DNA of 64,000 nt from positions 452,497 to 516,496 of the forward strand of contig CAVVWJ010000001.1 in the NCBI GenBank assembly GCA_963751925.1. The letters are read 5' to 3'. Below, in pieces: positions 7,929 through 38,476 of the stretch. Position 1 is the first letter of the stretch; each line of letters opens with the position of its first letter. The translations under genes and the position numbers were made by a program. Below the pieces are notes generated by a model. It made no database searches and was not told where the DNA came from. It was given only the letters and a program-made list of their open reading frames with translations. This DNA comes from an uncultured Gemmatimonadales bacterium. GTDB lineage: Bacteria > Gemmatimonadota > Gemmatimonadetes > Gemmatimonadales > GWC2-71-9.

Positions 7929-7958
7929 CGGAACCCTACCCCTTCTCGTAATGAGTCC

Positions 7959-19778: not shown

Positions 19779-19848
19779 GCAGGTGAGGCGAGGAGTCCAC
19801 AGACTTCGCTGTAACTACTGGTGAGACCGTGGTTTCCGTTCGACAGTC

Positions 19849-21616: not shown

Positions 21617-22393
21617 ATGGGAATTGTCATGCCCGGGGTACGTAGCAGTCACCCTTCGCTTCCCGCGATCAGGGTTCGGCTCGAACCTGCGCTCGCTCGC
21701 CATCACTATCAGGACTGGAGTCATGGAAGCGAGCAGAGTGCTGCTTCAAATGCCCCGGAGTGGGTCCGGCGTAGCGTCAACTTTGTTCTTGCCCTGGTAG
21801 CGTTGATCGTCACCCTGCCGCTCATGGTGTTGATCGCGGTACTCGTCTGGGCCACGTCGAAGGGGCCCATCCTTTACACCCAGGTTAGGATCGGACTGGA
21901 TCGACGGAGGCCGGTGAGCAGCAGCCAGAATCACCGGCGCGAGCGGGACCTGGGCGGGGTACCGTTCACGATCTATAAGTTCCGCACCATGCGGGTGGAC
22001 GCCGAGCACCAGAGCGGCGCGGTCTGGGCCCAACAGAGCGATCCCCGGGTCACCCCGGTGGGCCGGCTCCTGCGCCAGTACCGGCTGGACGAGCTGCCCC
22101 AGCTGCTCAACGTGCTCAAGGGCGAGATGAACATCGTGGGCCCCCGGCCCGAGCGGCCCACCATCTTCGCCGAGCTGCGCGAGCACATCGCCGAGTACCC
22201 GCTGCGCCAGCGGGCCAAGCCCGGGATCACCGGTCTGGCCCAGATCAACCATCACTACGACCGCTCGCTCGAGGATGTCCGGACCAAGGTGCACTACGAT
22301 CTCGAGTACATCCGCCGCCAGTCCGTCACCGAAGACCTGCGGATCATGCTGAAGACCGTCCCCGTCATCCTCCTCCGACGCGGCGGCTGGTAG
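21617..22393 (+). CDS. Polyprenyl-phosphate hexose-1-phosphate transferase (bacterial sugar transferase, small WbaP/EpsL type), the priming enzyme
   Basis: One transmembrane helix FVLALVALIVTLPLMVLIAVLVW, then GPILYTQVRIG, FTIYKFRTM, RLDELPQLLNVLKGEMNIVGPRPERP and KPGITGLAQI. Confidence 0.9.
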   Translation: MGIVMPGVRSSHPSLPAIRVRLEPALARHHYQDWSHGSEQSAASNAPEWVRRSVNFVLALVALIVTLPLMVLIAVLVWATSKGPILYTQVRIGLDRRRPVSSSQNHRRERDLGGVPFTIYKFRTMRVDAEHQSGAVWAQQSDPRVTPVGRLLRQYRLDELPQLLNVLKGEMNIVGPRPERPTIFAELREHIAEYPLRQRAKPGITGLAQINHHYDRSLEDVRTKVHYDLEYIRRQSVTEDLRIMLKTVPVILLRRGGW

Positions 22394-22628
22394 CGCTTCT
22401 TCCATTGGGGGTTTGCCTCGGCCGCGTCCGTCCCGGCCGTGGCAGGCAAGCGACAGTCAGTGCCGCAGGACGGCCCTCCTGGCAGTTTCGGTTTCCGGAT
22501 CTCCCGCTCACCTGTTGCCGCTCAACGAGTTACCGACGCGCCCTCCGCCCGTCCTGAGGAATGGTGATTGCTGGTATGCAGATAACTTCGGGCATATGTT
22601 CAGCAGGTCCAGACCTTTACAAGTGGAG

Positions 22629-23609
22629 ATGATGACCCAGCCTTCTTTGTCCACTCCAGCATCCGGCAGCGCCCCCGGTCTTTCGGTGGTCGCTCCGCTC
22701 TACAACGAGTCGCAGAATGTGCGGCCGTTGGTCGAGTGGATTTTGCAGGCGCTCGTGACCTACCCTGAGACCTTCGAAATCATCCTGGTGGACGATGGCA
22801 GCCGGGACGAGACCTGGAGTGAGGTGCTGGCCTGCGCCGCTGCCGATCAGCATGTCCATGGTCTTCGGCTGGGAAGGAATGTGGGTCAGACGGCAGCCAT
22901 GATGGCAGGATTCGACCACGCACGCGGCAAAGTCATAGTGTCACTGGACGGCGACCTACAAAATGATCCGCGCGACATCCCGGCTCTGGTTTCGAAGCTG
23001 GATGAAGGGTATGACCTGGTGTGTGGCTGGCGCCGCCAGCGACAGGATAAGTTGTTGCTGAGGAAGATTCCCTCCTGGGTGGCTAACCGCCTGATCCGCC
23101 GGCTGACCGGGGTGCCGATCACCGACAACGGCTGCTCTCTTAAGGCATATCGACGCGACCTGCTCTCCCGTATCTCGCTGTACGCCGAGCAGCATCGTTT
23201 CATTCCCGCTCTCTCGGCGAGTATGGGGGCCCGCATCGCGGAGATGCCAGTGCGCCATCATGCGCGCCGGTTCGGCGAGAGCAAGTACGGGATTTCCAGA
23301 ACAGTCAAGGTGCTGATCGACCTGATCACCTTGAAGATGATCACCACCTTCAGGTCCAGGCCACTTCTTGGATTCGGAGTGGCGGCAATACCACCGCTGA
23401 TAGCCGCTTTCGTCTTCGGAACACTCTGGCTCTTCAGTCTGACGCACTTCAGCCCGGAAAAGGCGTCCGCACTGGTGTTTCCGGGCGCCGGCCTACTCTG
23501 GGTCGGACTCGCGTTCTACCTTTTCATGCTGGGCCTGGTGGCTGAGGTTGCTCTCAGCAGCGAACGCGGACATGCGAACGACATCCCAACCGCGTGGGAG
23601 ACCAACTGA
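22629..23609 (+). CDS. GT2 glycosyltransferase, GtrB/DPM1/ArnC-like polyprenyl-phosphate glycosyltransferase (intact acidic motifs)
   Basis: LSVVAPLYNES, ILVDDGSRD, SLDGDLQNDP, and two C-terminal transmembrane helices with LGLVAEVAL. The start is uncertain (ATG at 22596, 22629 or 22632); the ORF-track start at 22413 looks non-coding. Confidence 0.85.
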   Translation: MMTQPSLSTPASGSAPGLSVVAPLYNESQNVRPLVEWILQALVTYPETFEIILVDDGSRDETWSEVLACAAADQHVHGLRLGRNVGQTAAMMAGFDHARGKVIVSLDGDLQNDPRDIPALVSKLDEGYDLVCGWRRQRQDKLLLRKIPSWVANRLIRRLTGVPITDNGCSLKAYRRDLLSRISLYAEQHRFIPALSASMGARIAEMPVRHHARRFGESKYGISRTVKVLIDLITLKMITTFRSRPLLGFGVAAIPPLIAAFVFGTLWLFSLTHFSPEKASALVFPGAGLLWVGLAFYLFMLGLVAEVALSSERGHANDIPTAWETN

Positions 23610-23610
23610 C

Positions 23611-24597
23611 GTGAGCGCACAGGGAATCCTGATGGAGCGAGCTTCCGAAGCCGCAGTCGAGACGGTCACCGAACCCAGGCACATTTCGGTTGTTGTGCCG
23701 GTGGTGGAGCGTGCCGACGAGCTGATGGCGGTGTACCAGGCGTTCGCAAGAGAACTCGATGCGAGAGGCGAGAACTACGAGTTCGTCTTCGTGTTCGACG
23801 GACGGTTCAGCCCTCCACCCGAGCTGACTGCGCTCTCGCAACGGACCGACCAGGTACGAATTCTCCGTTTCGCCCGGCAGTTCGGCGAGACTGCCGCGCT
23901 GCGCCTCGGCATCGAGAAGAGTCGCGGAGATCTGGTGCTGACCCTGCCACCCTACTTCCAGGTCCAGCCATCGAGTCTGGGGTTGCTGCTGGACACTGCG
24001 GGCGGGGATGCCGACATGGCCGTGGCCAGCCGTTCGCCCCGGCTGGACAGTTGGCTCAACCGCCTACAGTCGCGTGCCTTCCACAGTATCGTGGGAGGCG
24101 TCTCCGAGCAGCGCTTTCACGATATGGCGTGCGGCGTCCGGCTGATGCCACGCTCGGTGGCAACGGCACTGCCTTTGTACGGTGATCTCCACCGGTTCAT
24201 CCCGGCGCTGGCGTTGCGTGAGGGTTTCCGGGTTCAGGAAGTCCCGCTGCCACAGCACCCCAGCGATGCCCGGACGCGGCTGTATCGTCCAGGCGTTTAC
24301 ATACGGCGCCTACTCGACATCGCGGCATTCTTCTTTCTCGCCAAATTCACCGAAAAGCCCCTGCGATTCTTCGGCCTTGTCGGCTCTCTATTCATGGCAG
24401 TCGGGGTGGTGTTGAGCATTATCCTTTTTGTGCAGCGGGTGGAAGGCCAAGGCATTGCGAACCGACCGGCTCTTCTGCTGGCCGTGTTGCTACTGGCTCT
24501 TGGCGTCCAGCTCATGGGGCTTGGCCTGGTCGGTGAGATCATCGTGCACCTCCGCGCTCCCCATCGGCGCACCTATCGGGTGCGCGAATGGGTGTGA
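23611..24597 (+). CDS. GtrB/DPM1-like GT2 paralogue with degenerate catalytic acidic motifs
   Basis: Same architecture as the upstream gene (ISVVVPVVE..., two C-terminal transmembrane helices, LGLVGEIIVHL). However, FVFDGRFS replaces LVDDGSRD and TLPPYFQVQP replaces SLDGDLQNDP. Start at GTG 23611 or ATG 23632. Confidence 0.75.
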   Translation: MSAQGILMERASEAAVETVTEPRHISVVVPVVERADELMAVYQAFARELDARGENYEFVFVFDGRFSPPPELTALSQRTDQVRILRFARQFGETAALRLGIEKSRGDLVLTLPPYFQVQPSSLGLLLDTAGGDADMAVASRSPRLDSWLNRLQSRAFHSIVGGVSEQRFHDMACGVRLMPRSVATALPLYGDLHRFIPALALREGFRVQEVPLPQHPSDARTRLYRPGVYIRRLLDIAAFFFLAKFTEKPLRFFGLVGSLFMAVGVVLSIILFVQRVEGQGIANRPALLLAVLLLALGVQLMGLGLVGEIIVHLRAPHRRTYRVREWV

Positions 24598-24679
24598 TCG
24601 CCCCCCGGACTCGTGTCGCTGCGGGTCCGTAAGGGCCCCAGCCCGCACACCCACCCGCGACGATCTTCCCCACTTCCGA

Positions 24680-26230
24680 ATGCGACGCGATCTTACCCGC
24701 CTTGGCGGCTCGACTTTCGACCTTCTGGTGGTCGGTGCCGGGATTCATGGTGCGTGCGCTGCCTGGGACGCTGCCCTGCGTGGTCTCTCGGTCGCGATAG
24801 TAGACCAGGACGATTTTGGTGCGGCAACATCGGGAAACAGTTTGAGAATCATTCACGGCGGGCTCCGTTACTTGGCCCGAGGTGAGTTTGGGCGCATGAT
24901 GGAGTCGGTGCGTGAGCGGTCGACGCTGCTCCGAATCGCTCCGGGGCTGACCGCGCCTCTGCCAGTCTTAGTGCCGACATATGGGGCCGGATCACAGAGC
25001 CGGGCGGCGTTCAGAGTAGCCCTCGGGGTGAACGATCTGCTCTCTTCACATCGCAACCGCGGCTTGGATCCGGCTCGACGGATCCCGGCAGGGCGTCTGG
25101 TGAGCCGGGACCAGTGTCTCCGACTCTTCCCCGCCGTACATTCCAACGGATTGACCGGTGGCGCCCTCTGGTTCGACGCTCAGATGCTGCACCCGGAGCG
25201 CCTCACCTTCAGCTTTGTGCGCGCGGCCACTAAACACGGAGCGGTTGCGGCGAATTACCTGCGAGTGGATCAGCTCCGCACTCGCGATCGAAGCGTAGTT
25301 GGTGCGCGAGTCACTGATCGTCTCACCGGCTCGGGGTTCGATATCGAGTCACGGGCGGTGTTGGTTGCGGCGGGTCCCTGGACCCATGAAGTTGTCGCAA
25401 AGACCATCAGCAACGGCCCCAGCGCTGCGCCGCGGCCGCGCCGAGCGTTTGCCATGAACGTGGTCCTGACGCGCCGTATCGCCGAGGTTGCCGTAGGGAT
25501 CCGTTCGAGCACCTCCAGCTGCGACGACCCGATTTGCGGGGGAGGGCGGTTCATCTTCATGGCCCCGCAAGGAGGGTCGACTGTTCTGGGAACGTGGTAT
25601 GCGCCCGAGGGGCAAGGCGACGCCGAAACCCTACGCGAACGCGGTGTGCGCGCGCTCCTCGACGAGTTCAACGTGGCGTGCCCGGGACTGGGACTTTCAC
25701 TGAGCGACGTTGCGCGGTGCCAGTGGGGTTGGCTCCCGCTCAAGTCGGGCCTGGAGCCCGGACGCGCCGATGCGCTGGCCGAACGCGCCCGGGTGATAGA
25801 TCATGGCCGGAGTCACGGCGTCCGGCACCTCCACTCGGTCGAGGGTGTGAAGTACACCACCGCGCGGAGCGTGGCCGAGCAGGCGGTGGACCGGATAGTG
25901 GCTGATCTGGGCCGAGCCGCCGCTCCATGCCGCACTGCGGAGATTGCGGTAGCGAGCGAGCTCGAGGCGGTCACACTGGCTGCTCCAGGCCGCACAGCCG
26001 AGGTGACGCTCCAGGCCGTGCGTGAGGAGATGGCCATCAAGTTGTCGGATGTCGTGTTTCGCCGTACTTCATTGGGCTCCGCCCCGGGACCCGAGCGCAC
26101 AGCGCTGGAAGAGGCGGCTCGAGCCGCGGGCGCGGAGCTCGGCTGGGATGCTACTCGCAGGGAGGCGGAAATTCAGGACGTGCTCAGGCAGACCGGTCGT
26201 TCGCTGCCCGCCATGGAGGCAGTAGGGTGA
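24680..26230 (+). CDS. FAD-dependent oxidoreductase, GlpD (glycerol-3-phosphate dehydrogenase)-like
   Basis: The ATG at 24680 gives MRRDLTRLGGSTFDLLVVGAGIHGACAAWDAALRGLSVAIVDQDDFGAATSGNSLRIIHGGLRYL, followed by C-terminal LSDVVFRRTSLG. The ORF-track start at 24428 lies inside the preceding gene. Confidence 0.8.
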   Translation: MRRDLTRLGGSTFDLLVVGAGIHGACAAWDAALRGLSVAIVDQDDFGAATSGNSLRIIHGGLRYLARGEFGRMMESVRERSTLLRIAPGLTAPLPVLVPTYGAGSQSRAAFRVALGVNDLLSSHRNRGLDPARRIPAGRLVSRDQCLRLFPAVHSNGLTGGALWFDAQMLHPERLTFSFVRAATKHGAVAANYLRVDQLRTRDRSVVGARVTDRLTGSGFDIESRAVLVAAGPWTHEVVAKTISNGPSAAPRPRRAFAMNVVLTRRIAEVAVGIRSSTSSCDDPICGGGRFIFMAPQGGSTVLGTWYAPEGQGDAETLRERGVRALLDEFNVACPGLGLSLSDVARCQWGWLPLKSGLEPGRADALAERARVIDHGRSHGVRHLHSVEGVKYTTARSVAEQAVDRIVADLGRAAAPCRTAEIAVASELEAVTLAAPGRTAEVTLQAVREEMAIKLSDVVFRRTSLGSAPGPERTALEEAARAAGAELGWDATRREAEIQDVLRQTGRSLPAMEAVG

Positions 26231-27417
26231 GGATCCTCGTGCTGGCCCCTCACCCATTCTTTCAGGCGAGGGGAACACCCCTTGCCGTCAGAACCGTTCT
26301 CGAGTTCCTCAGTTCCCGGGGACACGAGATCGACCTGTTGACCCTGCACGAAGGTGAGAACGTCGACATCCCCAACTGCCGGATCTATCGCATCCCTCGG
26401 CCGTTCGGTATCCGGGATGTTCGGCCCGGGTTCTCGCTCAAGAAGGTGGTGTGCGATGTCTTCATGTTCGGTAAGTGCCTGCGCATGGTCCGGCAGGGCC
26501 GCTATGACCTGATCCATGCGGTAGAGGAAGCGGCGTTTATTGCAGCCGCGATGCAGGCGTTGACCGGCATCCCCTATGTCTACGACATGGATTCTTCCCT
26601 GGCAGAGCAACTGGTGGACGCCTATCCCACACTGCATTTCGCCTTCCCCACCCTGCGCCGCGCCGAGGCGCTGGCGGTGCGGCGGAGCATGGGCGTCCTG
26701 ACGGTCTGCGCTGCGCTCGAAGACGTGGCTCACGGCCATGCCCCCAATATCCCGATCGGGAGGGTGGAGGATACGACGCTGTTGCTTCAGGGCCCCCACA
26801 CCGGAAATGGCACGTCGGGAGAGAACGTCCTCCCCGACGGTGTGGGGGACCAGGGCCCTGTGGCGATGTATGTGGGCAACCTCGAGCACTATCAGGGCAT
26901 CGGGCTTCTGCTGGAAGGCTTTCAGCATTCTCTCAAGCGGGTGCCGGAAGCTCGCCTGGTGATTGTGGGTGGCATGCAGAAAGACATCGTGCGCTACCGC
27001 GGCCGGGCGGCCGAGCTCGGCATCGAAGGCCAAGTGCACTTCCTGGGTCCACGACCTCTAGGGACGCTGGGCCTGCTGCTCCAGCGGGCTGACGTTCTGG
27101 TCTCGCCCCGCCTCAAGGGCCTCAACACGCCGATGAAGATCTATTCCTATCTGGACTCCGGCACCGCAGTGTTGGCGACCCGCCTTCGCACCCACACCCA
27201 GGTGCTCGATGATCGGACCGCATATCTGGTGGAGCCCACTCCCGAGGCGCTCGGCGACGGGCTGGCCGATCTCCTGAGTGATCCGGGACTCAGGGAGCGC
27301 CTTGCCAGCCAGGCCAAGGCTTACGTCCAACAGGAGTTCACGCCTGAAGCGGCCCGGCGGAAGCTGGGCTCCTTCTACAGCGTGATGGAAACCAAGGCCG
27401 CCGGGGCCAAGGCGTGA
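26227..27417 (+). CDS. GT4-family (GT-B fold) glycosyltransferase
   Basis: 396 aa. MRILVLAPHPFFQARGTPLAV..., with C-terminal VSPRLKGLNTPMKIYSYLDSGTAVLATR (an E-x7-E-like region). Overlaps the upstream stop. Confidence 0.85.
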   Translation: MRILVLAPHPFFQARGTPLAVRTVLEFLSSRGHEIDLLTLHEGENVDIPNCRIYRIPRPFGIRDVRPGFSLKKVVCDVFMFGKCLRMVRQGRYDLIHAVEEAAFIAAAMQALTGIPYVYDMDSSLAEQLVDAYPTLHFAFPTLRRAEALAVRRSMGVLTVCAALEDVAHGHAPNIPIGRVEDTTLLLQGPHTGNGTSGENVLPDGVGDQGPVAMYVGNLEHYQGIGLLLEGFQHSLKRVPEARLVIVGGMQKDIVRYRGRAAELGIEGQVHFLGPRPLGTLGLLLQRADVLVSPRLKGLNTPMKIYSYLDSGTAVLATRLRTHTQVLDDRTAYLVEPTPEALGDGLADLLSDPGLRERLASQAKAYVQQEFTPEAARRKLGSFYSVMETKAAGAKA

Positions 27418-28634
27418 GGAAGCTGTGGTATTCACCCACGCTCCGCAGCGTGGTGGTTTACGGTGCGTCGGGGCTGGGGTTTGCGGGAGCGAATCTCATA
27501 TTGGCTCGAGTGCTGCCCACCGGCGAGTACGCACTCTTTACGCTGGTCATCGCTCTGGTGAACCTGAGCTTCGCGCTCGCGCCGGCGGGCGTCGATGGCA
27601 TTGTGAACCGGCGCCGCATGGAAGCCGGGCCTGCCCTGCTTCGCCACACGATCAATGCCTCTGTTATCGTCGCGCTGGTGTTCATGCTGATCGCCCTGGC
27701 TGGCTACCAGATGGGGCCCGCACTCCTGGCAATTGTGTTCCTGTCCACGGTGGCTGGCGGCGCCATGATGGTGGCGGGCGCACAGTTCCAAAGCGAACAG
27801 CGCTACGGGATTTCACTGGCGCTGACGCAGAGCCCTAATCTCTTCCTGCTGCTTGCCGCTCTCGCGGTCGTCCTCTCGAGGTCCCGAACGGCATTCCTGC
27901 CCCTGTCGATCGCGGCGATTGGATTCGTCATCGCCGCGGTGTACGGTTGGTCGGTCCTCTTTCGCGAGCGAGCATCAAAGCCAGCCCGGGAGAACCACAT
28001 TCCCTGGGGCGAGGCGCTGTCCTTTGCGGGGCTCAACGCAGCCGGGCTCCTGCTGATTCAGCTCGACCGTCTCGTCATCCCACACGTGCTGACGGATCAT
28101 GACCTCGCCACCTACGGCGTTCTCGCTGCCATTGCAGGATCCCTGTTCCGGGTGCTTCAGATGGGCGTGGGCTACTCCCTGATTCCTCGGCTCCGATCCG
28201 CCAGCAGCGTGGTAGAGCGCCGAAAGCTGGTAGCTCACGAGGCCAAGCTGGTTGGTGCCATCGTCCTGGGGGGCTCGGTGGTGATCTGGTTCGTCACACC
28301 GCTGGTGGAGCGAGCGTTCCTCGGAGGCAAATACCACCTGACCGGCTCGCTCGTGCTCGCGGCGCTTCTCAGCGGCGTTGCGAAGATCATGAACGCATTC
28401 ACCAAGTCGACTGTGACTGCTCTGGCGACAGCGCCGGAGCTGTCGCTGGTAAACCTGTTTGGGTGGGCTTCTGTTGGTCTCGCCATTCCGGCGGCTGTGT
28501 TCGGCGCCCGATGGGGGCTGGCGGGCGTGATCTATGGGGTCGGACTCGGTTGGCTGACCCGCGCACTCACCGCGTTGTATCTCACGTTGCGTCACCTGAA
28601 ATTGCCCGTTTCGATTCCGGTTACAGCGCCTTGA
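27414..28634 (+). CDS. Wzx/MOP-type polysaccharide flippase-like membrane protein
   Basis: 406 aa and about 12 predicted transmembrane helices. N-terminal VVYGASGLGFAGANLILARVL, typical of polysaccharide biosynthesis (Polysacc_synt) proteins. Confidence 0.7.
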   Translation: MRKLWYSPTLRSVVVYGASGLGFAGANLILARVLPTGEYALFTLVIALVNLSFALAPAGVDGIVNRRRMEAGPALLRHTINASVIVALVFMLIALAGYQMGPALLAIVFLSTVAGGAMMVAGAQFQSEQRYGISLALTQSPNLFLLLAALAVVLSRSRTAFLPLSIAAIGFVIAAVYGWSVLFRERASKPARENHIPWGEALSFAGLNAAGLLLIQLDRLVIPHVLTDHDLATYGVLAAIAGSLFRVLQMGVGYSLIPRLRSASSVVERRKLVAHEAKLVGAIVLGGSVVIWFVTPLVERAFLGGKYHLTGSLVLAALLSGVAKIMNAFTKSTVTALATAPELSLVNLFGWASVGLAIPAAVFGARWGLAGVIYGVGLGWLTRALTALYLTLRHLKLPVSIPVTAP

Positions 28635-28644
28635 GCAATCGGGT

Positions 28645-29463
28645 ATGACACCGCCGGACACAGAGTGGGCGCTCGCGTTGTTCAACCGCTCGGTACTCAA
28701 GCAGGCGAAATACCAGAAGTTGCTCGAGCACCTGGAAGATCCCTCCCAGAAAACCAGCCTCGACATCGGCGCGGACAACGGCGTCATCAGCTACTTGCTG
28801 CGCCAGCTCGGCGGCCGCTGGTACAGCGCTGATCTGGATCCTCGTGCGGTTGCTTCTATCCGGCAGCTGGTACGCGACGATGTGTACCAACTCGACGGCG
28901 GGAAAACGCCTTTCCAGGATCAGACGTTCGACCAGGTCGTAATCATCGATTTTCTGGAGCACATCGAGGACGACCGCGGATTCGTCCGGGAACTGGAGCG
29001 TATCCTCAAGCCCGGTGGCCGGGTCATCATCAACGTCCCCCATGTGAAGCCGCACTCGCTGCTGAACCAGGCTCGCCACCGCATCGGACTCACCGACGAG
29101 TGGCACGGGCATCTGCGGCCAGGCTACAACCTCGAGGGGCTCCGAGATCTTCTGGGCCCAGGCTTTGAGATAGAGCGGGCCACAACCTACTCGAGAGCGT
29201 TCTCGGAACTGATCGACACCGTGCTCAACGGGGCCTACGAGATGATGCGACGCAAGAAGCAGGACGGCGCGGTTTCGCAGAAGGGGACGGTGGTAACCCA
29301 GAGTGACATGAAAACCCACCGCAAAGAGTTTCTGCTCCTGTCGGCCCTCTATCCGGTTTTCTGGACGATGGCACGGCTCGATAGCCTGCTGCCGCTCCAA
29401 TCAGGGTACAAGCTCATTGTGCAGGCACGACTCCGGCCAGCAGCCTCACTCAAACCCGTCTAG
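28645..29463 (+). CDS. Class I SAM-dependent methyltransferase
   Basis: SLDIGADNG (motif I), ADLDP, VVIIDFLEHIED, LKPGGRVIINVP. Confidence 0.85.
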   Translation: MTPPDTEWALALFNRSVLKQAKYQKLLEHLEDPSQKTSLDIGADNGVISYLLRQLGGRWYSADLDPRAVASIRQLVRDDVYQLDGGKTPFQDQTFDQVVIIDFLEHIEDDRGFVRELERILKPGGRVIINVPHVKPHSLLNQARHRIGLTDEWHGHLRPGYNLEGLRDLLGPGFEIERATTYSRAFSELIDTVLNGAYEMMRRKKQDGAVSQKGTVVTQSDMKTHRKEFLLLSALYPVFWTMARLDSLLPLQSGYKLIVQARLRPAASLKPV

Positions 29464-29476
29464 AGCAGAGCCTTCC

Positions 29477-31303
29477 ATGGGAGCAGTCTACGGTATCTTC
29501 GGCGACTCCGACGCCAGCGAGCTCTCGGCGATCGGCAGTCGGCTGACTCATAGAGGTCCGGTCTCGGCGGAGTGGTCACCGGCGCCATCCGTGCATTTGG
29601 GGATGCGTGGTGCGCCGGGTACTCTGGAACAGCTTCAGGACGGTGTCCTCGCCTTCGATGGGTTTATCGACAACCGTCACGAGCTCGCTCTGCTGCTTGG
29701 ACACAAAGAGCCAGCACGCCCCTCACCTGCAACAGACGCGCTCCTGGTGCTGGAGCTTTTCTCGAGCCGAGGAGTGGATGCCTTCCAGCAGCTCGCGGGT
29801 CAGTTCGCGGTTGCGATCTGGGATGGGCCGGGCCGGCGGCTGCTCCTGGCCCGGGATAGGATCGGGTATGCGCCGATCTACTTCACCCTCGACAGCGGCC
29901 GTTTCGTATTTGCCAGTGAGTACAAAGCCTTGCTGGCGCTCGCCGGCGTTCCCGCGCGACCCAACCGCTCGGCCATTCAGGTGATCCAGTCCACCAAGTG
30001 GGTTCAGCCTGGCGTCACCTGCCTGGAGGGGGTCTTCCCGGTTGCTCCGGGCACCTGGGTAGCCGTGGACCAGGGGCACGTGCATACCGCTCGCTTCTGG
30101 GACATTCCTATCAAGGTGCTGCACCAGGACGAGGCTACGCATGCCGCGGCTCTCAGGTCGACGTTTCTGGAAACCCTGCGCCGACAGACGGAGCCGTATG
30201 ACAAGATCGGCGTGTCGCTCAGCGGTGGGCTCGATTCAGCGGTGATGGCTGCCGGGGCGCGACATGTAGCCCCGAACAAGGAGATTCACACCTTCACCGC
30301 CGGGTATGGCCCAGACGACAAGGAGGTCGTGAACGCGGCAAAGGTGGCCCGCGAGCTGGGGACGCATCACCATCCTCTGGTGCTCAACCCGGACGACCTT
30401 CCATCATTGCTGCCGTGGATGGTCTGGCACATGGAGGAGCCGATTGGCCGGGAAGACATTGCCTACCTCTTTGTCGCGGCCAGAGAAGCGGCGAAGCACG
30501 TAAACCTCGTGCTCACCGGCTTTGGATTCGATGGGCTGTTTGCCGGCTTGCCCCGGCACCGCATTGCAGATGTTGCTCTCCGGGTACCGGCCGTGGCGGG
30601 TCCGTTGCGGGAGTTCTACGACTACAGCGTACGGGGAGTGCAACCCCCCAGCATGGCAGGTGAGGCCCTCAAGCGCGCTTACTATCGCGGTCGTGATTTC
30701 CCGGCACCCCAGGTCCTTGGCGCCGCCCCGATCTCTCCGCTGCCAGGTTTCGGCGGTGGGGGCGATCAACCGCTGAGCGGGTTCTTACGGCGCGGCTTCC
30801 TGCTACTGCCATACCAGTCGACGGTGGAGAGGCTGTACACGGCATCAGGGGTCAGATTCAACGCTCATCACACCGATCCCGCCTTCCTCCAGGCAGCGTT
30901 CTCTATACCTGACCGGCTGAAGATCCACGGCCGGAGCCAGAAGTACATCCTCCGAAAGGCATGTGCGGGGCTGCTGCCGGAGTCGATCCTCAACTTCGGG
31001 AAGAGCTTCAATCGTCTGAAGCACGATCTGCACTTCAGTCGCGTGCTGGACCAGCTGGCCGATCAGCTGCTGGACACCTCGGCGGTGCTGGAACGTGGAC
31101 TGTTCGACCCGTCGTATGTCATGCGGTTGCGGCGTCGACCCGAGAGCAAGCCTTACTCCCAGGAGCGCGCCTACCGTCTATGGTCGATGCTGTTGACGGA
31201 GATGTGGAGCAGGATGTACCTCGACCGCCGTGGCGCGCCGCCAGACGTGCCCGTGGGGCCCTTACATCCTCTGGAGTCTCACGCAGAGCTGGTGCAAGCC
31301 TAA
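29477..31303 (+). CDS. Asparagine synthase (AsnB)-family amidoligase lacking the N-terminal Cys nucleophile
   Basis: The ATG at 29477 gives MGAVYGIFGD where the canonical sequence is MCGIxGIF. The synthetase-domain PP-loop VSLSGGLDSAV is intact. The ORF-track start at 29417 (MCRHDSG...) overlaps the upstream gene and does not align with the Ntn fold. Confidence 0.8.
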   Translation: MGAVYGIFGDSDASELSAIGSRLTHRGPVSAEWSPAPSVHLGMRGAPGTLEQLQDGVLAFDGFIDNRHELALLLGHKEPARPSPATDALLVLELFSSRGVDAFQQLAGQFAVAIWDGPGRRLLLARDRIGYAPIYFTLDSGRFVFASEYKALLALAGVPARPNRSAIQVIQSTKWVQPGVTCLEGVFPVAPGTWVAVDQGHVHTARFWDIPIKVLHQDEATHAAALRSTFLETLRRQTEPYDKIGVSLSGGLDSAVMAAGARHVAPNKEIHTFTAGYGPDDKEVVNAAKVARELGTHHHPLVLNPDDLPSLLPWMVWHMEEPIGREDIAYLFVAAREAAKHVNLVLTGFGFDGLFAGLPRHRIADVALRVPAVAGPLREFYDYSVRGVQPPSMAGEALKRAYYRGRDFPAPQVLGAAPISPLPGFGGGGDQPLSGFLRRGFLLLPYQSTVERLYTASGVRFNAHHTDPAFLQAAFSIPDRLKIHGRSQKYILRKACAGLLPESILNFGKSFNRLKHDLHFSRVLDQLADQLLDTSAVLERGLFDPSYVMRLRRRPESKPYSQERAYRLWSMLLTEMWSRMYLDRRGAPPDVPVGPLHPLESHAELVQA

Positions 31304-32319
31304 TGAACCAGCGAGATCATCGGGGCGACCGCCGAGAGATAGCCGGCTTTACGGTACCAGAGAGCCGTGCGCGCGAGCCCCTCCCGGAGGTCCACACCGG
31401 GCCGATAACCCAACTCCTCCCTGGCGCGATCGATTCGGAACGCCCGATTGGTCTTGAACCAGGACAGACGCCGGCGGAAAACCGGCGGAGTGAAACCGAT
31501 CGCCTTGCAGACCTTCTCAATGACGGCAGCGCCGAGCAGCGCCATGCCGTACCAGGGAAAGCGAAGAATTCTGACGTTCGAGCCTACCGCGGATCCCACA
31601 TACCGCACCAGTTCGTTCAGCGTGACGGCACGATCGTCTCCCGCTAGATAGATGCGTCCCTTGGCCTGCTCCGCGGTTCCGGCAAGCTCCAGGAGGTCAA
31701 CCAGATTTTCCACGTAGACGGGATGATTGAGCGTACGACCGTTCCCGACCATCAAGAACCACCCGCGTGAGACCATCCGAAATAGCTTCAACCAGCCACG
31801 GATATCGCCGGGGCCGTAGACTGACGTGGGTCGAACGATGACCAGATCCATCCCCTTGGCGATAAATTCCTGGCAGACCCGCTCGCCCTCCATCTTGCTA
31901 TAGCAGTAGTAATCCCTGGGAGCCATAGGCGAATTCTCGTCGCCGGGCGGCTCCGTCACGATGCCATGCACGCCCTGGGTGCTGCAATGAACCACCCGCC
32001 GGACGCCGTGTCGCTCCGCAGACTGCAGAACGTTCCTGGTTCCGTTCACCTCGATTTCCCAATACGCCGCATCGGGCTGGAGAATGTCGCCAAAGGGTGA
32101 GGCAAGGTGGTAGACCAGCTCGCAACCATCGATTGCCCGATCCACGTCCTCCGGATTCGTAACTGAGCCCGCCATCAACGTCGCGCCCCGAGCTTGCAGC
32201 TCTTCGTCGAACAGCCCGGGATTCTTATCGAGACTGACGACATGATGTCCTTTCCCCAATAGACGACGCACCAGATGTGAACCGACAAAGCCAGTCCCGC
32301 CCGTGACCAGTACCCTCAT
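31300..32319 (-). CDS. NAD-dependent epimerase/dehydratase (extended SDR), copy 1
   Basis: MRVLVTGGTGFVGSHLV, catalytic YYCYSK, VIVRPTSVYGPGD. Convergent 4-bp overlap with the AsnB-like gene. Confidence 0.88.
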   Translation of the reverse strand: MRVLVTGGTGFVGSHLVRRLLGKGHHVVSLDKNPGLFDEELQARGATLMAGSVTNPEDVDRAIDGCELVYHLASPFGDILQPDAAYWEIEVNGTRNVLQSAERHGVRRVVHCSTQGVHGIVTEPPGDENSPMAPRDYYCYSKMEGERVCQEFIAKGMDLVIVRPTSVYGPGDIRGWLKLFRMVSRGWFLMVGNGRTLNHPVYVENLVDLLELAGTAEQAKGRIYLAGDDRAVTLNELVRYVGSAVGSNVRILRFPWYGMALLGAAVIEKVCKAIGFTPPVFRRRLSWFKTNRAFRIDRAREELGYRPGVDLREGLARTALWYRKAGYLSAVAPMISLVH

Positions 32320-32364: not shown

Positions 32365-33567
32365 TCAGACTACTCCTACGGCCTGGTAGAACCGCCGAAT
32401 GGCGGGATCGCGCAGCAAGCCCCCGTGCACCTGCAGCAGGTTCACGTCGCTGTTCCCGTTCGCCTCCAGGATCACCGGCACCCCCTCGGCATCCACCAGA
32501 ATGTCCCACCCCGCCATCCGGTTGAACGGCAGGCTCGCCGCCACCCGCAGCACCGTATCCGTGATCTCGGCCCACCCCGGCAGCACCGCCCCCGTGATCT
32601 GCGCCCCCGTGTCCGGATGATGGGTAAACTGCTGCTGCCCACCCCGGCCCCCCTTCAGGGGATGCATCCGCCCCTCCCCCAGGGTGCCGCTGCTCCGCTC
32701 GATCGGTGCCGAGATCCCCCCACCCGACCAGTTATCCGTCGGCACCGTATCGGCCGTCCCGATCCGCTGCACCGCCCGGGCGATGAACGGGGCCGCCTCG
32801 CCCGGGGTCCACAGCGTCAGCAGCCGCATGGTGTTGGCACTCCCCGGAAACAGCCCCCGCCAGAACGCCCCCTGCTCCAGCCGACGCTCGATCAGCATCG
32901 AGCCGGGGCTCCGGCGATTCTTGCCGGACCCCAACCTGTCGAGAAAGGCTTGGAGGTCGAACGGTTGGATGGTGCGTCCCCGCTGGCGGTGGAACTCTCC
33001 GCTACGGTACTCCAACATGAAAAGACCTTCGCCTCGAAGGCCGTCTTCCGGTTTGATGATCCAGCGAGCACCGTCTCCTTCCTGGCGGAGCCGCTCGACC
33101 AGCTCGGTGCTCGGGATGTACCTCGCCGCCCCACTGAATGGATCTGCCAGGATTCGCCCTTCGTAGATGAAGGCGCGCGTCTCCGCCTGACGCAGCCCCT
33201 TCGCCAGCAGGACCGACCGAAGTCCGAGCTTGTGGTCGTAGAGACCTTCCCACGCGTTGATCCGCTGACCCATCATGAGGTGCTGGTAGTCACTCAGGTA
33301 GTCGCGCGGATCGTTCCGAGGCAGATCGTAAATCGTGGCCGACTCGGCAAAGAAGCCGGATCGCCACATCTCGATTTTTCGACCGATGGGCAGGCCGGTG
33401 TGCGCCTTACGCTCATGTTTGAGCCAGCGGTAGCTCGCCTGCAGGGTCTGATACCCGTGAGTACCCAGCAGTTTACGGAGTGTGGAGGGGAGCTGCTCGA
33501 CCTTCCCGTCCCAGCGGAAGTAGTCGAAGTAAGGTTGTTGTGCGGCACTATTCGCGTGGGGATACAT
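32365..33567 (-). CDS. ATP-grasp ligase of the sugar-transfer-associated type (ATPgrasp_ST-like), copy 1
   Basis: 400 aa. WIIKPEDGLRGEG, LIERRLEQ, NWSGGGISAPI, AGWDILVDAEGVPVILEANGNSD. The C-terminal ~170 aa are nucleotide-identical to copy 2. Confidence 0.8.
   Translation of the reverse strand: MYPHANSAAQQPYFDYFRWDGKVEQLPSTLRKLLGTHGYQTLQASYRWLKHERKAHTGLPIGRKIEMWRSGFFAESATIYDLPRNDPRDYLSDYQHLMMGQRINAWEGLYDHKLGLRSVLLAKGLRQAETRAFIYEGRILADPFSGAARYIPSTELVERLRQEGDGARWIIKPEDGLRGEGLFMLEYRSGEFHRQRGRTIQPFDLQAFLDRLGSGKNRRSPGSMLIERRLEQGAFWRGLFPGSANTMRLLTLWTPGEAAPFIARAVQRIGTADTVPTDNWSGGGISAPIERSSGTLGEGRMHPLKGGRGGQQQFTHHPDTGAQITGAVLPGWAEITDTVLRVAASLPFNRMAGWDILVDAEGVPVILEANGNSDVNLLQVHGGLLRDPAIRRFYQAVGVV
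32381..32889. repeat. 509-bp perfect direct repeat, copy A, internal to ATP-grasp gene 1
   Basis: A base-by-base comparison shows 32381-32889 equals 35251-35759 (offset 2,870 bp). One mismatch at 32890/35760 is followed by 7 more identical bases, then abrupt divergence. Confidence 0.95.
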
Positions 33568-33636
33568 TGCTCAGCCTGTTGTAAAAAAAGCGGCAGCCAT
33601 GCCGTGGTGGTTCTTCATGGCAATCCGCCGTCTCGC

Positions 33637-35154
33637 GTGAAAGATCAGCTTGTGATCACTGCTTCCGCTAAAACCGCGCTCCTCCGCACCACCTTCAGCG
33701 GCTTCGGCACCCAGTACGCCGGCGCGCTTATAACCGGGGCCGGCCAGATCGTCGTCACGGCCGTTCTCGCACGGTTGCTGTCTCCGAGAGACTACGGTCT
33801 TGTGGGGTTGGCGGCGGTGTACGTCGGCCTGGCCGCGGTGCTTTCGCAATTCGGTATCGGGGCTGCCTTGATCCAGCGGATAGAACTCACTCCCCGTTTC
33901 GTCCGAGCCAGCTTCACCGCGACCGTTCTCATCGGAATCCTTACCACCGCCCTGGTCTGGGTTACTGCACCGCTGGCCAGCCGCATTCTTGGTGATCAGG
34001 GACTGATCCCCATCATCAGGGGCCTCAGTCTTACGTTCGTCCTGGCAAACCCCGGCTTCGTCGCCGAAGGCCTGTCGGAGCGACATCTCGCCTGGCGCCG
34101 GCTGATGTGGGTCGAGGTATGGGCCTTTGCCATAGGCTACGCCGTACCGGCGCTCTGGTTGGCCTTCGCCGGTTTCGGAGTGTGGGCGCTGGTGGGCAGC
34201 GCTCTGGGCCAGAGCTTTCTCCGATCCGCCATCTTGATGGTCTTGCAGCCTCATCCAAAGTCCCCCCGGATAGGGCCGGAGATCCGCGAACTTCTCCGGT
34301 TCGGAGGGGGTTTTACGCTGGCGCGAATCTTCAACTATGGCGCCAGCCAGGGCGACAATTTCGTAGTGGGCCGGGTCCTCGGTATCGAGGCGCTCGGGTA
34401 TTACGGTCGAGCGTTCAAGCTGATGATGATCCCGGTGACATACTTCGCCAGCATTGTCACCAAAGTGCTCTTCCCCATCATGTCCCGCCTGCAAGGGGAT
34501 TCCCCCCGGCTTCGATCCACGTACCTCACAGGAGCTGCGGTGCTCGGCCTGGTGAGCGCACCACTGGGAGCGCTGATGGTGGTCACCGCCCCCGAGATCG
34601 TCCTCGTCGTGCTGGGACCTAAGTGGGGTCCTACAGTTCTGCCGTTTCAGATCCTCACGGCCGCAATCATGCTCCGGAACGTGTACCTGATGGCCTATTG
34701 CCTCGACGGCGCCACCGGTGAGTTGAAGAAGCGCACCTTCCGAGATGGCATCTATGCCTTCGCTGTGGTGTTTGGCAGCTTGATCGGAAGCCGCTTTGGG
34801 CTGGTTGGAGTCGCGATTGGAGTCGTCAGTGCGATAGCGCTGAATTACTTCATCGGAGCGTGGATGAGCCTCGGAATTATCCGGGCCACCTGGCGGGACT
34901 ATGCGCGATCCCAGATTCCCGCGCTCGCGCTTGGCGCTGTGACGGCTGGCGTGGCGGTTCTGGTACGGCTGGCCTTGCTGCGAGTCGGGGCCGACCCGCT
35001 CGTCGTCCTCGGCCTCACCGGCCTGGTTAGTGTCGGCGCGATCGGCGGCCTCTATCTGCTGCAGCCGACCATTCTGGGTGAGTACGGTGGCCTCGCGGTC
35101 CAGCATCTCCTCTCGGCTCTTTCGTCCAAGGTGCCCACCGGGGAAGCCGGGTAG
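33637..35154 (+). CDS. Wzx-type polysaccharide/O-unit flippase (Polysacc_synt_3-like)
   Basis: A GTG at 33637 gives (M)KDQLVITASAKTALLRTTFSGFGTQYAGALITGAGQIVVTAVLARLLSPRDYGLVGLA..., with multiple transmembrane helices. The 909-aa ORF in the track (from 32425) is this gene fused in-frame to an antisense shadow of ATP-grasp 1. Confidence 0.8.
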   Translation: MKDQLVITASAKTALLRTTFSGFGTQYAGALITGAGQIVVTAVLARLLSPRDYGLVGLAAVYVGLAAVLSQFGIGAALIQRIELTPRFVRASFTATVLIGILTTALVWVTAPLASRILGDQGLIPIIRGLSLTFVLANPGFVAEGLSERHLAWRRLMWVEVWAFAIGYAVPALWLAFAGFGVWALVGSALGQSFLRSAILMVLQPHPKSPRIGPEIRELLRFGGGFTLARIFNYGASQGDNFVVGRVLGIEALGYYGRAFKLMMIPVTYFASIVTKVLFPIMSRLQGDSPRLRSTYLTGAAVLGLVSAPLGALMVVTAPEIVLVVLGPKWGPTVLPFQILTAAIMLRNVYLMAYCLDGATGELKKRTFRDGIYAFAVVFGSLIGSRFGLVGVAIGVVSAIALNYFIGAWMSLGIIRATWRDYARSQIPALALGAVTAGVAVLVRLALLRVGADPLVVLGLTGLVSVGAIGGLYLLQPTILGEYGGLAVQHLLSALSSKVPTGEAG

Positions 35155-35174
35155 CATCTGCCAGACCAACTGAG

Positions 35175-36428
35175 TCATGACGGGTTGCCATCCCGTGCCG
35201 CGACCTGATCGGGCTCCTTCCTGCTGGAGCCATTACTCACAACTCCAAACGCCTGGTAGAACCGCCGAATGGCGGGATCGCGCAGCAAGCCCCCGTGCAC
35301 CTGCAGCAGGTTCACGTCGCTGTTCCCGTTCGCCTCCAGGATCACCGGCACCCCCTCGGCATCCACCAGAATGTCCCACCCCGCCATCCGGTTGAACGGC
35401 AGGCTCGCCGCCACCCGCAGCACCGTATCCGTGATCTCGGCCCACCCCGGCAGCACCGCCCCCGTGATCTGCGCCCCCGTGTCCGGATGATGGGTAAACT
35501 GCTGCTGCCCACCCCGGCCCCCCTTCAGGGGATGCATCCGCCCCTCCCCCAGGGTGCCGCTGCTCCGCTCGATCGGTGCCGAGATCCCCCCACCCGACCA
35601 GTTATCCGTCGGCACCGTATCGGCCGTCCCGATCCGCTGCACCGCCCGGGCGATGAACGGGGCCGCCTCGCCCGGGGTCCACAGCGTCAGCAGCCGCATG
35701 GTGTTGGCACTCCCCGGAAACAGCCCCCGCCAGAACGCCCCCTGCTCCAGCCGACGCTCAATCAGCACTCCGCTGGGGTCTCGTTGCTCACGGTGGGCTC
35801 GTTCCTCCAGCGCCCCCACATAATTGTCGTAATCGAACACCTCGACCTCACGACCTCGCTGCCTGAGAAACTGGCCGCCGCGCCAGGTCAGCAGGAAGAT
35901 GTCCTCTCCACACCAGCCGTCCTCGGGCTTCACGATGTAGCTGGAGCCCTCTCCCGTGCCTCGAAGATGCTCGAACAGCTCCTCGAGCGAGACATACCGC
36001 GCGTTTTCTGCGAAGGGGGCCAAGAGGATTTGCCGCTGGTGGATATAGGCCATCGTCTCGGCCTGGCGGAATCCCATCGCCAAAAGCACGGACCGGAGAC
36101 CGAGCTTCCGCTGATACAGGCCTTCCCACGAGTTGATGCGCCCGCACCGAACGAAGTGCTGGTAGTCGCTCAGATACTCGGCAGGGTCGTTGCGGGGGAG
36201 ATCGTAGATGGTGGCGGACTCAGCGAAGAATCCTCGTCTCCACATATCGAACTTCTGGCCGAGCGGCAGACCGGTACGCGCCTTTCGCTCGTGTTTCAGC
36301 CAGGCGTAGCTGGAGCGCGCGGTCTGGTAGAGACGGAGATCGGCGCGACGAAGCGCCGCGGTGACAGGACCAAACTGCGCAGCAGCCTGGGACCCGCCGT
36401 TCGCGGTAGAGGGGTTTCGATCCTCCAT
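35175..36428 (-). CDS. ATP-grasp ligase of the sugar-transfer-associated type, copy 2
   Basis: 417 aa. YIVKPEDGWCGED, LIERRLEQ, then the same C-terminal half as copy 1 plus a unique 24-aa tail. The N-terminal half is diverged from copy 1. Confidence 0.8.
   Translation of the reverse strand: MEDRNPSTANGGSQAAAQFGPVTAALRRADLRLYQTARSSYAWLKHERKARTGLPLGQKFDMWRRGFFAESATIYDLPRNDPAEYLSDYQHFVRCGRINSWEGLYQRKLGLRSVLLAMGFRQAETMAYIHQRQILLAPFAENARYVSLEELFEHLRGTGEGSSYIVKPEDGWCGEDIFLLTWRGGQFLRQRGREVEVFDYDNYVGALEERAHREQRDPSGVLIERRLEQGAFWRGLFPGSANTMRLLTLWTPGEAAPFIARAVQRIGTADTVPTDNWSGGGISAPIERSSGTLGEGRMHPLKGGRGGQQQFTHHPDTGAQITGAVLPGWAEITDTVLRVAASLPFNRMAGWDILVDAEGVPVILEANGNSDVNLLQVHGGLLRDPAIRRFYQAFGVVSNGSSRKEPDQVAARDGNPS
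35251..35759. repeat. 509-bp perfect direct repeat, copy B, internal to ATP-grasp gene 2
   Basis: Identical to 32381-32889 (see copy A). Confidence 0.95.
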
Positions 36429-36553: not shown

Positions 36554-37534
36554 TCAGAGATAACCCATCTCGCGGTACCACTGCCCAGTCAGTCGCAGTC
36601 CCGCAGATAGCGGCACGCGCGGGACGTACCCGAGCTCACGTTTGGCGCGGCTGATGTCGAAGGCGCGATTCTGCCGGTACCAGTCCACTCTACGTGGAAA
36701 GATCGGTGGCGTGATGCCGAATGGGCGGCAGACCTTTTCTACTACGTGGCCGACCGCCACTACCGGCAGAACGGGGTAGTGAGGAATCCGCACATCAACG
36801 TCGAGTGCCCGGGCGACTTCCTTGACGATTTCCTCGATGGGATAGTAGTGCTCGTCGGCAATGAGGTATGCCCGACCGCGGCCGACACCAGGCGGCATGC
36901 AGAGGAGAAAGGAGTCTACCAGATTGTCGATGTAGAGCGGATGGTACAGCGTGCGCCCGCTGCCGAACATCGGGAATGTCCCTTTGGCGACCCGCTTGAA
37001 GATCATGAAAAACCGCTCGGGATCGCCGGGGCCATAGATGGCAGCGGGCCTCAGGATAACCGTCTCCATTGGTCCCGACTCCGCCAGCACGAGCGGCTCG
37101 GCTTCGTACTTGGTGCGCTGGTAGTAATCAGCGGGCTTGATGGGAGCATCCTCGTTGGCCGGGGGATGATCCACGTTTCCGTGCACGCCGCAAGTGCTGC
37201 AGTAGATGAACTTTCGCACGCCATGCCGACGGGCCGATTCCAGTACGACCCGCGTGCCGCCGACGTTCACGTCGTCGTAGAATGAGTTGGGTACATTCAG
37301 CTCGCGAAAAGCGGCCGCAAGATGGAATACGAGCTCCACTCCCGTCATGCTCCGCTCTACGGCGTCTTTATCAGTGACCGATCCGATGACCACCTCCGCG
37401 CCGTGGGCGCGCAAGGCGTCGCACTGCAGGCCCTCCTTGTAGTCGAGTGCCACCACCGCGTGGCCTTCGTCAATCAGCCGCTTTACTAGTGCAGTACCGG
37501 TAAACCCGGTGCCGCCTGTCACCAACACCCGCAT
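36554..37534 (-). CDS. NAD-dependent epimerase/dehydratase (extended SDR), copy 2
   Basis: MRVLVTGGTGFTGTALV, catalytic YYQRTK, VILRPAAIYGPGD. A paralogue of 31300-32319, with roughly half the residues identical by eye. Confidence 0.88.
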   Translation of the reverse strand: MRVLVTGGTGFTGTALVKRLIDEGHAVVALDYKEGLQCDALRAHGAEVVIGSVTDKDAVERSMTGVELVFHLAAAFRELNVPNSFYDDVNVGGTRVVLESARRHGVRKFIYCSTCGVHGNVDHPPANEDAPIKPADYYQRTKYEAEPLVLAESGPMETVILRPAAIYGPGDPERFFMIFKRVAKGTFPMFGSGRTLYHPLYIDNLVDSFLLCMPPGVGRGRAYLIADEHYYPIEEIVKEVARALDVDVRIPHYPVLPVVAVGHVVEKVCRPFGITPPIFPRRVDWYRQNRAFDISRAKRELGYVPRVPLSAGLRLTGQWYREMGYL

Positions 37535-37675: not shown

Positions 37676-38476
37676 ATGAGCAGTAACGCCAGCTCCGCTC
37701 CCGGGCCGCAGCCGATCAACAGTCATCCACTGCGCCGATTCCACGAGCTCCGCGAGGACGCGGATATCGGGACGTCGTCCGAGGACTACGCACGCCGGTT
37801 TACCGGAGCGGTGGGACGATGGTTCGTGGAAACTCAGACACGCCTCACCCTGAGCGTTCTGAGCGCTCTGCCTGCCGGAGCCTCGGTTCTCGACGTGGGC
37901 GGCGGACACGCCCAGATTGCGCCTCCCCTGATCGAGCACGGCTATGAAGTTACCGTCGTTGGGAGCGATCCCGTCTGCGGTGCCCGGCTGGCGCCATGGA
38001 TCTCGAACGGCACCTGCAAGTTCGAGGTGGCGAACCTCCGAGCTCTTCCTTATCCGGACCGTTCGTTCGATGCCGTCGTCTGCCTTCGGCTGTTGCCGCA
38101 CAGCGTGGATTGGAACGGTCTGATTGCGGAGCTTTGCCGCGTTGCCAGGCGCTCCGTGGTCATCGACTATCCGTCGCTCCGCAGTGCCAATCTTCTCTCC
38201 GAGTACTTGTTCGACCTCAAGAAAGGCATCGAGGTGAACACTCGGCGCTTCATTTCGTTCACCCCGCGCCAGATTCACACCGCCTTCGCTGCCAACGGCT
38301 TTTCGGTCCGGGCAGAACGGCCCCAGTTTCTGCTCCCGATGGTGCTTCATCGGTTGGGCAAGCGAGCAGCCCTGAGCCGGCTCGCCGAGGCCCCGGGCCG
38401 ACTGCTGGGCATTACTCGCTGGTTCGGCTCCCCAATTATAGTCCGAGCAGATCGCCACGCGCTTCCCGACTCATAG
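37676..38476 (+). CDS. Class I SAM-dependent methyltransferase
   Basis: VLDVGGGHA (motif I), VVGSDP, FDAVVCLRLLPH, RRSVVIDYP. Confidence 0.8.
   Translation: MSSNASSAPGPQPINSHPLRRFHELREDADIGTSSEDYARRFTGAVGRWFVETQTRLTLSVLSALPAGASVLDVGGGHAQIAPPLIEHGYEVTVVGSDPVCGARLAPWISNGTCKFEVANLRALPYPDRSFDAVVCLRLLPHSVDWNGLIAELCRVARRSVVIDYPSLRSANLLSEYLFDLKKGIEVNTRRFISFTPRQIHTAFAANGFSVRAERPQFLLPMVLHRLGKRAALSRLAEAPGRLLGITRWFGSPIIVRADRHALPDS

Follow-up and report, generated by a model that had tools for sequence, protein, structure and literature searches.

How can two genes of one polysaccharide locus be deeply divergent over most of their length and yet identical, base for base, over the rest? The question is raised by a 64,000-nucleotide (nt) stretch of DNA from an uncultured Gemmatimonadales bacterium of soil (contig CAVVWJ010000001.1 of GenBank assembly GCA_963751925.1; hereafter the window), in which two ATP-grasp ligase genes, placed on either side of a Wzx/MOP-family flippase gene, share a perfect 509-nt direct repeat in their 3′ parts (Table 1). 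A preliminary description of the window had read this mosaic as the result of recent gene conversion and had suggested that the repeats could act as a deletion switch. We conclude with high confidence that the 3′ parts of the ligase genes have been homogenized by recurrent ectopic gene conversion, while their 5′ halves stay distinct, throughout one Gemmatimonadales clade. The conversion reading is confirmed and extended; the process itself is already known, and the example is clean and new.

The two copies of the tract match at 509 of 509 positions at an offset of 2870 and form the longest identical run in the region at that offset, just as first described. Past position 32889, a single mismatch is followed by seven matching bases, also as described. 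Beyond these bases the two genes had been called unalignable, which proved wrong: the 5′ halves of gene 1 and gene 2 align with 64% nt and 59% amino acid (aa) identity, and a 6-nt indel in them changes the offset to 2876 upstream of the tract. At the opposite edge, perfect identity ends after the shared RRFYQA codons, as had been stated, but homology does not; it continues for four further codons (VGVV versus FGVV) before it stops. Third codon positions are 99 to 100% identical inside the tract versus 47% in the corresponding 5′ halves, which rules out chance and protein-level selection as the cause of the identity.

The comparison set comprised 64 related loci, mostly short-read metagenome contigs. 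An exact-protein look-up of the window's two ligases returned no record, and cluster mates were used in the comparisons instead; a scan of a genome collection for related loci returned four, none of them from the converted clade. The C-terminal halves (C-halves) of 20 paralogue pairs outside the window's clade are 60 to 77% identical at the nt level, with no identical run longer than 22 nt, and their third positions are ∼36 to 67% identical. This unconverted set includes a locus, L008, that shares the gene order g2, flippase, g1, SDR1, AsnB (g1 and g2 being the types to which genes 1 and 2 belong), and the tract is thus not general to the family. The proposed check on lineage specificity therefore came out in favor of conversion: the tract is confined to one clade, and relatives outside that clade are diverged in both halves.

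Within the clade, we aligned three lineages at the nt level, namely that of the window, that of L005, L055, and L062 (∼92% nt identical), and that of L054 and L060 (∼80%). All three share the codon at which identity between the copies begins and differ in the 3′ edge of the tract, and both copies carry lineage-specific substitutions. In the window, L005, and L054/L060, the paralogues inside a genome are closer to each other than orthologues are across genomes. Within genomes, the window has no difference in 509 positions, L005 has none in 172 and then 4 at the 3′ edge, and L054 and L060 differ at ∼6 of 510; differences between lineages amount to 33/529 (window versus L005) and 47/510 (window versus L054).

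Protein trees of the two gene parts conflict in the same manner. Trees of the N-terminal halves (N-halves) recover g1 and g2 as separate clades, with 98 and 100 of 100 bootstraps, respectively, and orthologous N-halves have diverged to ∼70% aa identity across the converted clade. Based on the C-halves, g1 and g2 clades appear in 0/100 bootstraps, and g1 instead pairs with g2 by lineage; the pairs with identical C-terminal tails are P0010/P0032, P0005/P0030, P0004/P0026, P0002/P0029, and P0121/P0021. Synonymous-site identity, tree conflict, and pairing by lineage thus support gene conversion and a mosaic structure. The part of the original proposal that we would change is the single recent event, in place of which we find recurrent concerted evolution across the clade with a fixed 5′ boundary. 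An older conversion common to the sister clade was also considered and received no support (bootstrap, 11/100).

Several points weigh against this interpretation. Assemblers can collapse near-identical repeats, and within-genome identity in short-read contigs may be overstated; several of the g1/g2 pairs were matched across contigs or samples, not inside one genome; and consensus polishing could in principle have sharpened the exact 509/509 match in the window. As for the donor, the signal is weak: 37/100 bootstraps place the tract with the g2 type of the sister clade and 1/100 with g1. Finally, we infer the cause of the fixed boundary, be it a homology barrier or selection.

Recurrent conversion is accompanied by an unusual base composition: nothing else in the window is as strong an outlier as the tract. 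Its GC content is 71%, versus 61 to 62% in the two 5′ halves. Relative to 31 other genes or gene parts of the window, the tract is high in G plus C at third codon positions (GC3, 90% versus 64 to 84%) and in G at these positions (G3, 64% versus 27 to 43%) and low in A (A3, 1% versus 5 to 16%). Runs of at least four G number 14 per 509 nt on the coding (non-template) strand of the tract, versus a mean of 1.9 and a 99th percentile of 7 over 2,540 segments, and the two copies are the most G-run-rich 509-nt segments in the whole 64 kb. The canonical G-quadruplex motif (four runs of three or more G, loops of ≤7) is absent from the tract, and each copy has one relaxed motif (loops of ≤12); for that reason we claim G-run richness only.

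The same shift is seen across lineages. The C-halves of all converted lineages have a GC3 of 86 to 93% and a G3 of 49 to 64%, compared with 71 to 78% and 37 to 41% in the unconverted sister clade (L007, L008 a/b, L009, and L011), and N-halves everywhere have a GC3 of 69 to 79% and a G3 of 29 to 41%. The shift is strand-asymmetric, in that G3 rises from ∼40% to 49 to 64%, and C at third positions (C3) goes from 35 to 41% in unconverted C-halves to 26 to 37%. The rise in GC partly fits GC-biased gene conversion (gBGC). The replacement of C-ending by G-ending codons is not predicted by symmetric gBGC and is unexplained.

Both ligases match the ATPgrasp_ST family (PF14397) well above its curated cut-off of 31.4 bits. 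We found no characterized member of this family in a literature search or in the PDB, and a profile search of PDB sequences yielded only a marginal match to TTLL7 (E = 0.08) and no sequence relative with a solved structure. We therefore turn to an AlphaFold2 (AF2) model of the gene 1 product, based on a 43-sequence alignment (predicted local distance difference test [pLDDT], 84; predicted TM-score [pTM], 0.84). The model predicts a helical N-terminal region (residues 29 to 122), a beta-rich central domain (130 to 214), a low-confidence loop (215 to 222), and a C-terminal domain that opens with a strand at 223 to 228. A Foldseek search with the model returned 299 PDB matches at E ≤ 1e-3, with TM-scores of just 0.3 to 0.4, and the 50 best-ranked matches are nearly all ATP-grasp ligases (Ddl, LysX/ArgX, L-amino-acid ligases, biotin carboxylase, and PurK-type enzymes). 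Model and matches together support an ATP-grasp fold composed of a central lid domain and a C-terminal domain.

In the modeled structure, the tract starts in strand 223-228, right after a variable, indel-bearing loop, and its edge thus appears to lie where the central domain meets the C-terminal one; whether tract and domain boundaries coincide was a check proposed in the preliminary description. K172 (in the motif IIKPEDG), E227, D355, and E368/N370 (in ILEANGN) are invariant or nearly so in the 43 sequences; by analogy, K172 would be the ATP-binding Lys, E227 the hinge Glu, and D355/E368/N370 the Mg-binding triad. The C-half holds 33 of the 46 invariant columns of the family. The preliminary description had opposed a homogenized ATP-binding half to a diversifying substrate-binding half. 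This division is too simple, because the putative ATP-binding Lys172, together with the central lid domain, lies in the unconverted half, while the putative hinge Glu227 and Mg ligands Asp355 and Glu368/Asn370 lie in the converted half. It nonetheless seems reasonable to place in the N-half whatever sets the two enzymes apart.

We propose that the two ligase genes are old paralogues whose 3′ 510 nt, which would encode the C-terminal catalytic domain from the hinge strand on, are kept alike by recurrent intrachromosomal (ectopic) gene conversion, while the remaining 5′ 60%, which covers the helical N-domain and central lid domain, evolves independently in each gene. Loss of homology at the variable indel loop, possibly with selection for distinct N-halves, may halt heteroduplex extension, and the conversion boundary may thereby maintain itself. 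Repeated conversion has been accompanied by a strong rise of G- or C-ending codons in the tract. As the repeats are long, perfect, and direct and lie 2,870 bp apart, a RecA-type crossover between them would be expected occasionally to delete the flippase gene and fuse the ligases.

The last of these steps leads to the alternative that survives best, according to which the repeats underlie a real deletion/duplication polymorphism in natural populations, with part of the population losing or changing its exopolysaccharide in a phase-locked manner. We consider this possible but doubtful. The geometry of the deletion, as originally described, is sound: the perfect 509-nt direct repeats lie on either side of the only Wzx-type gene of the locus, and a repeat of this kind is an ample RecA substrate. 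The predicted deletion removes the 2,870-bp unit of Table 1 or an equivalent one, comprising the 5′ half of gene 1, the flippase gene, and the 3′ tail of gene 2. The predicted product is one in-frame gene, located between SDR2 and SDR1, that joins the g2 N-half, the tract, and the g1 tail.

Five contigs from five samples and at least four lineages have this predicted architecture, without a flippase gene, and are colinear with the window minus the 2,870-bp unit. In L055 (6.2 kb; sample 3300086549), a methyltransferase gene is followed by SDR2, a gene for a 398-aa chimera (P0017), SDR1, and AsnB. The deletion junction is as in L055 in L056 (sample 3300080030), L064 (sample 3300054999), and L010, and L057 (7.3 kb; sample 3300003324) carries a deletion junction in a more distant lineage. 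The reciprocal junction expected from unequal exchange, consisting of the g1 N-half, the tract, a g2-type tail, and the 3′ end of the flippase gene, is present in L063 (Joint Genome Institute sample 3300082509), where it encodes a 421-aa fusion protein (P0122). A repeat-flanked deletion of an export gene is also known for wzb of Vibrio vulnificus (PMC7247339).

However, the deletion contigs all derive from short reads, and in assembly graphs of such reads the locus is a loop (A-Rep-B-Rep-C) that can alternatively be walked as A-Rep-C or B-Rep-B; all four combinations of repeat entry and exit are present in the assemblies, as an unresolved loop would yield. The L063 junction may stem from a tandem duplication or a circle, or from an assembler's path round the repeat loop. 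L056, of the deletion type, is identical over ∼1.4 kb to L062, a contig of the full type from the sister sample 3300080029, and hence does not represent a separately evolving deletion lineage. Contigs of the clade often end in or at the repeat (L005, L054, L058, L059, and L060), and their typical length of 2.5 to 3.1 kb is near that of the repeat unit. Attempts to map the crossover in the deletion-type contigs were uninformative because of strain variation; in L064, the sequence is R2-like to 10 nt before the first g1-specific base. Loss of the locus's only Wzx gene would also be irreversible, and Wzx loss is often harmful in Wzx/Wzy pathways. The predicted 2,870-bp junction was thus found in five contigs, but the reciprocal junction in L063 and the identity of L056 with L062 are also what mis-resolution by an assembler could produce. 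As for the on/off switch envisaged at first, the loss of the sole flippase of the locus speaks against it: the deletion would at best be a one-way, “phase-locked off” event, and a reversible switch is unsupported.

A broader proposal would combine two elements, namely that the tract is a self-sustaining hotspot, with G-ending codons and G-runs both a product and a promoter of conversion, and that the junction contigs are real soil variants (flippase-less and duplicated alleles). We regard this combination as improbable.

We assign a far lower probability to the view that the perfect repeat in the window is an artefact of assembly or polishing, such as a mis-join, a collapsed or duplicated segment, or consensus homogenization. 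The window comes from a metagenome-type record, and repeats longer than the read length are prone to error. However, the order SDR2, g2, flippase, g1, SDR1 recurs in independent assemblies at 70 to 92% nt identity (L054, L059, L060, L062, L005, L008, and L011). The 32.8-kb contig L054 contains SDR2, g2, the flippase gene, and then g1, ending 74 nt into the tract; L059 and L062 contain g2 followed by the flippase gene; and L060 (11 kb) and L005 contain the flippase gene, g1, and SDR1. Near-identical tracts are also present in L005 and in L054 versus L060. Because the layout recurs independently, and because the half-genes in the inter-repeat unit make sense only in a two-copy layout, the window is very unlikely to contain a mis-join or a false duplication. 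As regards the two-copy layout, the artefact that the preliminary description wished to see excluded is excluded by the independent contigs L054, L059, L060, L062, and L005.

Very strong purifying selection on the catalytic domain, acting without recombination, might be suggested by the greater conservation of the C-half across the family and by its somewhat higher similarity, relative to the N-half, in unconverted pairs, but this explanation is virtually untenable and is refuted by the identity at synonymous sites (third positions 99 to 100% identical versus ∼40 to 50% in unconverted pairs), and orthologous tracts differ by 6 to 9% between lineages while paralogues within a genome do not.

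The homogenized ligase genes belong to a Wzx-dependent exopolysaccharide locus (Table 1), and homologues carry annotation as proteins of Gemmatimonadales metagenome-assembled genomes. The flippase scored 198.5 bits against the NCBIfam MOP flippase family, under the equivalog cut-off of 273, and no second flippase (no other Polysacc_synt match) was found among the open reading frames (ORFs) scanned at 11997-53590. SDR1 and SDR2 are paralogues too, with 47% aa identity, and show no conversion between them. The minus-strand order of the four genes is mirrored (SDR2, g2 ... g1, SDR1), an order that simple tandem duplication of a two-gene module would not give. The AsnB-like gene also adjoins SDR1 in L004, L008, L009, L055, and L060, and a methyltransferase gene is at the matching position in L054, L055, L057, L058, and L062. 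Within the glycosyltransferase block, a 406-aa ORF (27414-28634) has no Pfam match and has a counterpart in L060 (6743-7963); judged by its position, it is a candidate Wzy-type polymerase.

Table 1. Features of the exopolysaccharide locus and of the repeated tract (positions in the window)
Feature	Position	Strand	Match or description
Conversion tract, copy 1	32381..32889	-	Codons 227-396 of ATP-grasp gene 1 (LIERRLEQG...RRFYQA)
Conversion tract, copy 2	35251..35759	-	Codons 222-391 of ATP-grasp gene 2
2,870-bp unit (one repeat plus intervening DNA)	32890..35759	.	Lost if the repeats recombine
ATP-grasp ligase gene 1 (g1 type), 400 aa	32365..33567	-	PF14397 ATPgrasp_ST, 99.1 bits
ATP-grasp ligase gene 2 (g2 type), 417 aa	35175..36428	-	PF14397, 99.3 bits
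Wzx/MOP-family flippase, 505 aa, between the repeats	33637..35154	+	PF13440, 236 bits; PF01943, 103 bits
SDR1, NAD-dependent epimerase/dehydratase, 339 aa, downstream partner of gene 1	31300..32319	-	PF01370, 142 bits
SDR2, epimerase/dehydratase, 326 aa, upstream partner of gene 2	36554..37534	-	PF01370, 131 bits
AsnB-like (asparagine-synthase-like) glutamine amidotransferase, 628 aa, convergent with SDR1	29417..31303	+	PF00733, 175 bits; GATase_7
Class I methyltransferase, 266 aa, neighbor of SDR2	37676..38476	+	PF13489, PF08241
Remaining polysaccharide locus	21617..29463	+	Pfam: initiating sugar-phosphate transferase, two GT2, FAD oxidoreductase, GT4, methyltransferase; plus 406-aa protein

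Two histidine kinase/sigma-54 response-regulator pairs and a receiver-GGDEF protein bracket the locus (16918-20802 and 38603-41163). L054 keeps the right-hand kinase/regulator pair, followed by Omp85-like and DUF4390 proteins, and L057 and L058 keep the histidine kinase. In these last two contigs, which represent a more distant lineage of the converted clade, the histidine kinase and methyltransferase genes are separated by a VanZ-like membrane protein gene (L057, 1717-2847; L058, 1542-2759) that the window lacks. Two long ORFs that overlap the flippase gene were rejected as spurious: a low-complexity, 535-aa antisense ORF on the minus strand (33571-35178) and a 909-aa ORF on the plus strand (32425-35154) that extends the flippase frame backward through ligase gene 1. 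Long spurious ORFs are typical of high-GC DNA.

Across Gemmatimonadales, ATPgrasp_ST genes are variable in number and arrangement. Four copies lie at 7001-14247 in L012, along with two flippase matches, one of which covers only the C-terminal half of the query, and L045 has three copies in tandem (4586-7953). L027 has its two copies side by side, placed between SDR2 and SDR1 and not separated by a flippase gene. Two adjacent copies are also located upstream of SDR1 in L004 and L009, contigs that begin inside the first copy.

What is particular to this locus is that conversion affects one domain with a clade-conserved boundary, is accompanied by a large compositional shift, and comes with an internal control, provided by the unconverted halves and the sister clade. 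A converted and an unconverted domain in one gene pair, together with an unconverted sister clade, make for an unusually clean natural experiment. The locus allows a direct test of whether bacterial gene conversion biases base composition, as the debated gBGC hypothesis holds, as well as of what sets the boundaries of conversion tracts. The two ligases are natural domain-swap chimeras, with two N-terminal modules on one identical catalytic C-domain, and the substrate specificity of PF14397 ligases is to be sought in the N-half. In addition, the repeat fragments or mis-joins short-read assemblies, which matters for the annotation of Gemmatimonadales polysaccharide clusters.

Concerted evolution by gene conversion is well known from tufA/tufB and from the 3′ segments of babA/babB in Helicobacter pylori. 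A survey of bacterial paralogues described 26 long-lasting cases of recurrent conversion (PMC6053082). The ligase genes resemble known concerted bacterial paralogues in that similarity is greater within than between genomes, recurrence is long, and tract boundaries are sharp. Unlike in those cases, a single domain (the C-terminal 170 aa) is homogenized here while the N-terminal 60% is deeply split into two types, and the boundary is constant across lineages that are ∼20 to 30% diverged. Furthermore, the present genes belong to an accessory polysaccharide-modification module of uncultured Gemmatimonadales and not to core translation or metabolic complexes.

GC-biased gene conversion has been proposed for bacteria (Lassalle et al. 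2015, PMC4450053). Consistent with that proposal, the GC3 of the tract is 86 to 93%, versus 69 to 79% in non-recombining gene parts and unconverted orthologues. In contrast to it, the enrichment here is strand-asymmetric, and conversion is ectopic between paralogues and not allelic between strains.

For the deletion, parallels exist in other polysaccharide loci. At the cap/bexA locus of Haemophilus influenzae, a capsule export gene is lost through repeats. In V. vulnificus, repeat-mediated deletion of wzb gives rise to phase-locked acapsular variants (PMC7247339). As in these systems, direct repeats flank an export or translocation gene in a polysaccharide locus, and recombination would delete it irreversibly. 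The repeats here differ in being halves of functional enzyme genes and not intergenic arrays or duplications bounded by insertion sequences; the product is a predicted in-frame chimeric ligase, and the putative deletion is seen in assembled contigs. If the deletion is real, the phase-locked wzb deletion would be its nearest known analogue.

For the function of the ligases, the best analogy likewise comes from a surface-polysaccharide locus. The C-terminal ATP-grasp amidoligase of Cj1438, from the Campylobacter jejuni capsule, forms an amide on the C6 carboxylate of glucuronate (PMC11800379). Cj1438 and the present ligases are both ATP-grasp enzymes encoded in surface-polysaccharide loci, but the former belongs to a TupA-like ATP-grasp family and the latter belong to PF14397. 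By analogy, amidoligase chemistry of the Cj1438 type is plausible for these PF14397 enzymes, which are encoded beside SDR and amidotransferase genes.

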